Origin: an uncultured Clostridia bacterium
GTDB taxonomy: Bacteria; Bacillota; Clostridia; TANB77; CAG-508
DNA length: 64,000 bases
Reading direction: 5' to 3'
Assembly (NCBI GenBank): GCA_944388735.1
Contig: CALXJX010000003.1
Coordinates: forward strand, 9,111-73,110
Numbering within the stretch: the stretch's first letter is position 1; each line of letters starts with the position of its first letter. Below, piece by piece: positions 20,273-20,333 of the stretch. The notes beneath the pieces were generated by a model. That model made no database searches and was not told the DNA's origin. It saw nothing but the letters and a program-made list of their open reading frames with translations. Made by a program: the position numbers and the translations under genes.

Positions 20273-20333
20273 ATTGCCGAACCTGTCCCTTTTGGCAAAA
20301 AATTGCCAAACGAACCCGTCCCATTTGGCAAAA
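20273..20333 (+). repeat. Family-D double-hairpin module, copy D1 (mfd leader)
   Basis: attgccgaacctgtcccttttggcaaaaaattgccaaacgaacccgtcccatttggcaaaa. It ends 3 nt before the mfd RBS. Confidence 0.7.

Follow-up and report, generated by a model that had tools for sequence, protein, structure and literature searches.

The genes mfd and dusB, whose open reading frames (ORFs) were identified by TIGR00580 (964 bits) and TIGR00737, respectively, both lie in the window, by which we mean the whole 64,000-nt stretch of DNA analyzed here. Each is preceded by the same module of ~58 nt in the same orientation, at 20274-20331 for mfd and 51449-51506 for dusB (Table 1). At mfd, the second repeat unit of the module is followed after 4 nt by a Shine-Dalgarno (SD) sequence, GGAGG (20336-20340), and the ATG (20348) lies 16 nt past the unit end. 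The dusB module, TAATCGAACCTGTCCCAATTGGCAA-AAAA-TTGCCAAACAAACCCGTCCCTAATGGCAT, sits inside the rodA-dusB spacer, with 5 nt between its second unit and a GGAG and with the ATG (51521) 14 nt past the unit end. A sequence-only reading of this DNA had described a double-hairpin module that might be a leader switch or a dyad operator for both genes or, failing that, one more small mobile repeat. It was right that the two copies share their orientation and end a few nucleotides before an SD, and that both contain the palindrome TTGGCAA-AAAA-TTGCCAA, which at mfd comprises the spacer and its flanking arms (20292-20309). The likeness of the two sequences also stands, while the identity given as ~85% comes to ~82% when counted from the alignment over the 61 columns originally compared. 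The description of two TTGCCRAAC...TTTGGCAA units per module, however, fails for dusB, where the 5′ arm of unit 1 reads TAATCG instead of TTGCCG, so that only one unit hairpin is possible; the fold predicted by RNAfold for this copy is the central hairpin alone. Unit 1 at mfd keeps both stem arms (TTGCCG...TTGGCAA) in the sequence and its alignment. Of these two modules, the double hairpin therefore exists in the mfd copy only. The module pattern had 5 matches in the window versus 0 in 100 shuffles, and Rfam returned no match anywhere in the window.

Table 1. Repeat units and associated features in the window, with positions counted from its first nucleotide.
Feature	Position	Strand	Remarks
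G-type REPIN-like element (palindrome first noted at 7292)	7296..7431	.	Inverted units at 7296-7324 (-) and 7403-7431 (+)
Promoter-like site TTGAAA-17-TATAAT	20156..20184	+	11/12 matches; -10 block ATATAGTATAAT
T-type unit 1, mfd doublet	20274..20298	+	25 nt, TTGCCGAACCTGTCCCTTTTGGCAA; 4-nt deletion relative to 29-nt unit; gapped right-half PWM match
AAAA spacer, mfd doublet	20299..20302	+	Read in sequence
T-type unit 2, mfd doublet	20303..20331	+	TTGCCAAACGAACCCGTCCCATTTGGCAA; well-conserved unit; PWM 45 bits
T-type unit 1, dusB doublet	51449..51473	+	TAATCGAACCTGTCCCAATTGGCAA; degenerate, 5′ arm lost
T-type unit 2, dusB doublet	51478..51506	+	TTGCCAAACAAACCCGTCCCTAATGGCAT; PWM 47 bits

The -10 block of the promoter-like site upstream of mfd, ATATAGTATAAT, is kept upstream of mfd in relatives (loci L121, L122, and L124). 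Given this site, the mfd doublet would lie within a 5′ untranslated region (UTR) of ~150 nt and is probably transcribed as part of the leader. The ytqA-mfd intergenic region as a whole measures 580 nt. Just upstream of the doublet, at 19908-20116, a different repeat family is represented by a copy that matches C28:13589-13797 at 100% identity and more than 10 other places at 89 to 99%, and pieces of further repeats lie at ~19840-19907. The long region upstream of mfd thus consists mostly of accumulated repeats. At the other end of the gene, the mfd ORF stops at 23311, giving an open frame of 987 aa compared with ~1150 to 1160 aa in relatives, and an overlapping ORF runs on in another frame (23292-23837).

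The assembly that contains the window (G000), a metagenome-assembled genome of an uncultured gut Clostridia bacterium, has 1.44 Mb in 58 contigs, a GC content of 28%, and a completeness of 93%. The pattern TGCCRA-N-GTCCC-N-GGCA has 114 exact matches in this 1.44-Mb genome, and a position weight matrix (PWM) scan at 10 bits or more recovered 140 ungapped units plus 10 with a small deletion, compared with none in the reversed genome. The unit defined by these ~150 copies is 29 nt long, (G/T)TGCCAAAnnAACnCGTCCCnnnTGGCA(C/A), and consists of a 6- to 7-bp stem (TGCCA/TGGCA) closing a conserved 17-nt loop that contains CGTCCC. Its outermost pair covaries, G occurring with C and T with A. Units are mostly extragenic, with only 6 inside long ORFs, and they fall into two subfamilies. 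The 74 G-type units (GTGCCAAAAAAACACGTCCCCAATGGCAC) almost always form inverted pairs 70 to 140 bp apart, each element being one long palindrome, and the genome holds ~35 of these REPIN-like pairs. The pair in Table 1 is one of them, and its two 29-nt units form both arms of the palindrome, as the sequence-only reading had suspected when it saw a related unit there. The 78-nt spacer of this element is itself palindromic, and the palindrome continues into the outer flanks, which show no direct repeat. Inspection by eye of this and a few other pairs revealed no target-site duplication.

The 69 T-type units (TTGCCAAACGAACCCGTCCCnAATGGCAA), which occur on both strands, almost all follow a more degenerate unit, from which they are separated by AAAA, a spacer common to nearly all doublets genome-wide. 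They make up 37 loci, 32 of which are doublets or triplets, and with this result of the genome-wide search that the sequence-only reading had recommended, the module can no longer be taken as a feature of mfd and dus. Among 33 doublets, the stem of unit 2 is intact in 31, and 18 have the central hairpin with 6 or more of its 7 pairs. Counted in a fixed register, which also misses the gapped unit at mfd, the stem of unit 1 passes in only 1. Six or seven doublet pairs are the inverted ends of palindromic elements of ~328 bp (e.g., C18:14788-15115), which are 75 to 78% self-complementary; BLAST searches for decayed halves of such elements found no interior remnant adjoining the mfd or dusB copy. 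Two other T-type loci are unusual in themselves. At C11:30088-30431, a palindromic element with doublet ends has a different repeat of ~125 to 135 bp nested in its middle, which occurs in more than 40 copies in the genome at 93 to 96% identity. At C6:29570-29631, a doublet lies in sense orientation inside an ORF of 1207 aa (27225-30845, minus strand), where it leaves the frame unbroken and is read as ...NSQTNLSLLAQNCQTNPSPMAIQ....

Doublets are strongly polar with respect to genes: it is the 3′ end, at unit 2, that adjoins a gene, and seldom the 5′ end. In a hand tally from the locus table, to which the dusB copy was added by hand and in which genes were called crudely as long ORFs with SD-guided starts, a stop codon lay within 25 to 30 nt of the doublet 3′ end in 19 cases with the doublet antisense to the gene versus 3 with the doublet in sense after the stop, and a start codon lay within 30 nt in 7 cases in sense versus 1 antisense (Fisher p = 4e-4). 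Counting again by unit, with ORFs of 100 aa or more, gave 23 antisense stops and 6 sense starts. Loci that resemble mfd and dusB are thus about one fifth, most doublets being found at the 3′ ends of genes, and the mfd copy is the only doublet in a divergent intergenic region. Copies scattered without positional or orientation bias had been named as the result that would speak against a leader element. The bias is in fact strong, but it is a polarity toward gene boundaries of both kinds and not an enrichment in 5′ leaders. An inverted partner is found on the 5′ side of 14 of 45 units and on the 3′ side of none. Since units point outward in paired elements, and likewise around the transposase gene described below, solitary doublets may be the outer ends of larger elements.

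Predicted RNA folds provide another view of this polarity. The antisense RNA is more stable than the sense RNA in 32 of 33 doublets (mean, -18.5 versus -10.7 kcal/mol), because G-U pairs form only on the antisense strand. At mfd the antisense fold reaches -23.3 kcal/mol (z = -2.4), and a terminator scan called the minus strand of unit 2 terminator-like. On the sense strand, folds are no better than dinucleotide shuffles (z = -1.4 for mfd and -0.9 for dusB), the predicted central and unit-2 hairpins are mutually exclusive, and the SD is not sequestered. Given such a stable antisense fold, an upstream copy would be tolerated only in sense orientation, and a hairpin downstream of a stop codon could terminate the transcript or shield it. 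The polarity fits an orientation-dependent tolerance of a structured repeat, and this explanation and that of outward-pointing paired elements both fit without excluding each other. Neisseria Correia elements, pneumococcal BOX and RUP, and enterobacterial REPs are likewise structured intergenic repeats in 3′ UTRs and operon spacers that are transcribed and whose hairpins can end or stabilize transcripts. The doublets are presumably comparable to these in location and hairpins, with unrelated sequence and transposase type. We also considered and rejected the idea that every T-type unit is a textbook antisense terminator: the combination of a single-unit hairpin and a U-tract is present in 1 of 43 units, the mfd copy alone, and U-rich tails after the hairpin are not clearly enriched (16 of 35 doublets antisense versus 11 of 35 sense).

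One gene for a Y1_Tnp protein was found in the genome, at C28:5232-5996 (254 aa) between dnaB and tilS; since the assembly is 93% complete, a second could have been missed. The protein passes the Pfam Y1_Tnp cutoff (30.6 bits versus a cutoff of 23) and matches NCBIfam REP_Tyr_transpos (NF047646) at an E value of 2.8e-16 and 59.7 bits, which is below the curated RAYT cutoff of 80. In the family alignment, the HUH motif (H58 and H60) and Y118 (YIHxNPVKA) are invariant. The best solved structure for the family profile was E. coli TnpA-REP (4ER8; E value, 3.7e-4), and a single-sequence phmmer search of the transposase against PDB gave no match. A conserved C-terminal part of ~100 aa carries ISYRxIEKxLGIGRExLRKL, and its matches to helix-turn-helix (HTH) families are weak and come from single members only (HTH_11, 3.4e-4; HTH_23, 3.5e-3; HTH_28, 0.16). 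G-type units flank the gene as an inverted pair at -228/-137 and as forward units at +144 and +826. The T-type doublets are probably tied to the same enzyme, judging from the unit architecture that they share with these G-type flanking units.

Directly downstream of the transposase gene, tilS itself contains two G-type units in frame (C28:6138-6166 and 6822-6850; L006:2366-2398 and 3051-3080). Each is read as CQKNTSPMAQ in G000, the first right after the SGGPDS helix. The same position of tilS holds one or two copies of the species' own unit in 7 relatives (L018-L027), with translations such as NCQNSPSPLA, TCHLSPTPMA, and TCQEEPSPVAE; in G024, it holds three copies with an in-frame stop. The right-hand REP of the REPtron is therefore located within an essential gene, and it varies from species to species.

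Homologues of the transposase were found in 77 of 101 genomes of the same genus, at 1 to 6 per genome, and the position between dnaB and tilS is kept in 9 of the 11 best loci. At the conserved loci DnaB is 85 to 91% identical, the transposase only 43 to 50%. A pair of flanking units is present in 10 of the 11 loci as a 27- to 33-nt palindrome, reversed 100 to 230 nt upstream and forward 136 to 250 nt downstream. Its sequence differs by species and its architecture is kept, with compensatory changes in the stem (TGCCA/TGGCA, TGTCA/TGACA, GTCCCC/GGGGAC, and CTGCCA/TGGCAG). Each species' flanking unit is abundant only in its own genome. The AAACCCGGAACC unit has 210 copies in G024, 54 in G065, 64 in G021, and 0 in G000, and units of CGTCCCC architecture have 116 copies in G095, 34 in G041, 52 in G099, and 64 in G014; backward-read controls gave 0. 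Conversely, the G000 unit was absent from 40 related genomes (24 of the same genus and 16 of the same order). A BLAST search of the module against 100 genomes of the genus returned only matches of 85% identity or less, to other species' own families, and an exact 20-mer searched in the genomes of 185,579 species had only five isolated single-copy matches, in unrelated genomes. G024 also shows head-to-tail arrays at a 34-nt period, some beside its transposase gene, which suggests that doublets are a normal product of the system.

Comparison of orthologous leaders, a further step recommended at the outset, showed the module to be absent from 9 of 9 dusB spacers and 8 of 9 mfd leaders. Among 9 relatives with kept synteny, the rodA-dusB spacer is 12 to 65 nt long and contains no repeat, compared with 123 nt in G000. 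In 7 other metagenome contigs, all encoding an identical DusB, the dusB spacer does not differ from that of G000, and no strain polymorphism of the repeat was seen among them; this look-up by identical protein reaches very close strains only. The mfd leader in 8 of 9 relatives is ~30 to 60 nt long, lies behind the conserved ATATAGTATAAT block, and has no repeat. Since G000 keeps this block (within 20156-20184), its doublet appears to sit in an enlarged 5′ UTR. The ninth relative, G021 (L122, C9), has a head-to-tail doublet of its own REP family (GGTTCCGGGTTTAAATGGGGACA type) in the mfd leader, ~110 nt ahead of the gene, with the conserved -10 block on one side and the SD on the other, and its end is 3 nt short of AGGAG. 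Two different repeat families thus occupy the same spot in the two species. Because REPs fill a sizeable share of intergenic DNA and 18 relative-gene pairs were inspected, this coincidence is not significant.

Our verdict is that the family is of the REP/RAYT (TIRtron-like) kind, here in Clostridia. REP/REPIN-RAYT systems (REPtrons) have been described in Proteobacteria, as in the REPINs of Pseudomonas fluorescens (PMC3116915, PMC5581495) and the TnpA-REP of E. coli (PDB 4ER8). As in REPtrons (PMC3116915, PMC5581495, PMC6006769), the repeats are short, high-copy palindromes that lie mostly between genes, a single-copy HUH-Y1 gene is flanked by inverted units, and the unit sequence is species specific and changes with the gene, whose conserved position points to vertical inheritance. 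The inverted doublets of G-type units fold as one long hairpin, as REPINs do, whereas the mfd/dusB module is head to tail. Several features depart from this model. The units lack the GT[AG]G (GTAG/GTGG) foot of REPs, with T/A-rich positions -4 to -1 and a start at GTGCC or TTGCC inside the stem; they have a short stem of 6 to 7 bp and a long conserved 17-nt loop, unlike classical REPs; and head-to-tail arrays at a 33- to 34-nt period are common, whereas classical REPs seldom form them (PMC3733652). The host also differs from those of REPtrons in being a low-GC member of the Clostridia, and the protein differs in having ~250 aa with an extra C-terminal domain and a score under the NCBIfam RAYT cutoff.

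A RAYT-like Y1 protein with a C-terminal extension, flanked by inverted repeats that are not canonical REPs, is what characterizes TIRtrons and their TIRYT proteins (Di Nocera et al. 2013, PMC3733652). The TIRtron motif is GGGGWSAS, and there are self-complementary TIR families that occur as dimers or in clusters (PMC3733652). The reverse strand of our unit (GGGGACGT/GGGGACGG) matches 7 of the 8 positions of this motif, which is missing from the units of AAACCCGGAACC type that some relatives have. The TnpA-Y1 proteins of subclass 2.1 have a C-terminal HTH/Bac_DnaA_C-like domain, and no REP-like repeats were found with them (Quentin et al. 2018, PMC6006769). The flanking units here differ from subclass 2.1 as published (PMC6006769) in being clear hairpins with 34 to 210 genomic copies. 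Taken together, the C-terminal extension with its weak HTH similarity and the likeness to GGGGWSAS point to TIRYT/TIRtrons and TnpA-Y1 subclass 2.1 as possible kin. In the survey by Bertels et al., RAYT groups 2 and 3, both proteobacterial, were the only ones linked to abundant repeats, and group 1 was noted in Clostridia (PMC5581495). The subterminal hairpins recognized by a Y1 transposase and the lack of target duplication also recall the ends of IS200/IS605 elements, from which the present system differs in that the transposase gene is single copy and syntenic across species and appears not to move with the repeats.

Alternative explanations can be set against these results. A dedicated cis-regulatory leader, riboswitch-like or an attenuator, would control mfd and dusB through two alternative hairpins. 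The shared orientation and immediate proximity to the SD at both genes, the mutual exclusion of the central and unit-2 hairpins, the location of the mfd copy downstream of a conserved promoter, and the different REP doublet at the same spot in G021 all agree with such a role. Weighing against it are at least 35 copies in the genome, mostly at gene 3′ ends, the absence of the module from orthologous leaders, a first hairpin that is usually degenerate and is missing from the dusB copy, sense folds equal to shuffles, an SD left free in the predicted folds, and the lack of an Rfam family. We regard this proposal as already largely refuted and give it the smallest chance of all the alternatives. 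It also seems extremely unlikely that TTGGCAA-N4-TTGCCAA at the center of the module is bound as DNA, whether by a dimeric regulator, which would make it a dyad operator, or by sigma-54 (TGGCA-N-TTGC). The dyad is a perfect 7 bp in the mfd and dusB copies, and TGGCA...TTGC resembles -24/-12 elements, but just 18 of 33 doublets keep 6 or more of its 7 pairs and most copies lie behind stop codons, not in promoters. A sigma-54 promoter in particular was rejected: the TGGCA...TTGC spacing in the module is one base short of the sigma-54 consensus, and no gene with Sigma54_DBD (rpoN) was found in the 93% complete assembly. The switch and the operator, which had been the leading proposals of the sequence-only reading, thus give way to its fallback of a small mobile repeat related to the 7292 palindrome, which is supported and can now be specified as a family of REP-like repeats associated with a RAYT-like Y1 transposase.

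Mobility might also come from elsewhere, if the module were an ordinary MITE moved by the DDE transposase of an insertion sequence and the Y1 gene were unrelated. The genome does have other MITE families, including the copy just upstream of the mfd doublet, but the G-type pair in the window shows no direct target duplication (judged by eye, on few pairs), and in 10 of 11 species the Y1 gene has units on both sides, whose sequence changes along with that of the gene. We consider this very unlikely. A more serious suggestion adds to a REP origin instead of replacing it, namely that doublets have been co-opted as orientation-dependent RNA elements, with an antisense hairpin that ends or stabilizes the transcript behind a stop codon and only the weak sense fold tolerated upstream of genes. 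The orientation counts, the near-universal excess of antisense stability, and the strong, terminator-like antisense fold at mfd argue for it. Against these stand the U-rich tails, found behind the antisense hairpin in only 16 of 35 doublets (11 of 35 for sense), a hairpin-plus-U-tract arrangement peculiar to the mfd copy, the crude gene calls beneath the position counts, and the fact that polarity is also expected if doublets are the outer ends of larger palindromes (5′-side partners, 14 versus 0). We therefore hold co-option to be possible but somewhat doubtful.

We conclude, with a probability of roughly 0.85, that the module is a head-to-tail doublet of a dispersed 29-nt REP-like repeat, cognate to the single-copy Y1 (RAYT/TIRYT-like) transposase encoded between dnaB and tilS, and that the mfd and dusB copies are tolerated passengers. 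If it acts as E. coli TnpA-REP and the IS200/IS605 enzymes do, the Y1 enzyme would recognize the unit hairpin in single-stranded DNA and would cut and rejoin next to it, which would account for the spread of units, the inverted pairs, and the head-to-tail arrays. The mfd and dusB copies would be insertions that arose in the G000 lineage and have since become fixed among the sampled strains. They would lie in a transcribed leader or operon spacer in the weakly folding RNA orientation, with the SD left free, and if they alter mfd or dusB expression at all, they would do so incidentally and not as a dedicated switch. The strong polarity and the independent doublet in the mfd leader of G021 leave room for site preference or function. 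In a bolder form, which we think unlikely, the genus would keep a vertically inherited REPIN-RAYT-type partnership at dnaB-tilS in which the repeats are more than passengers: insertion or retention of doublets would follow a strict polarity, antisense behind stops as a terminator or stabilizer and sense before the SD, and the mfd leader would have been hit in two species as a preferred target or for a benefit.

The assignment to a REP-like family removes a false lead, that of a dedicated leader switch for mfd and dusB, and supplies a name and a likely mover for a repeat family of the sort that fills the intergenic DNA of this genome and leads predictions of ORFs and regulatory sites astray. 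A Y1 gene that is found in synteny across a genus of Clostridia and has 34 to 210 cognate hairpin repeats would carry the REPIN-RAYT picture over to Gram-positive gut bacteria and would offer many species pairs for the study of coevolution between repeat and enzyme.
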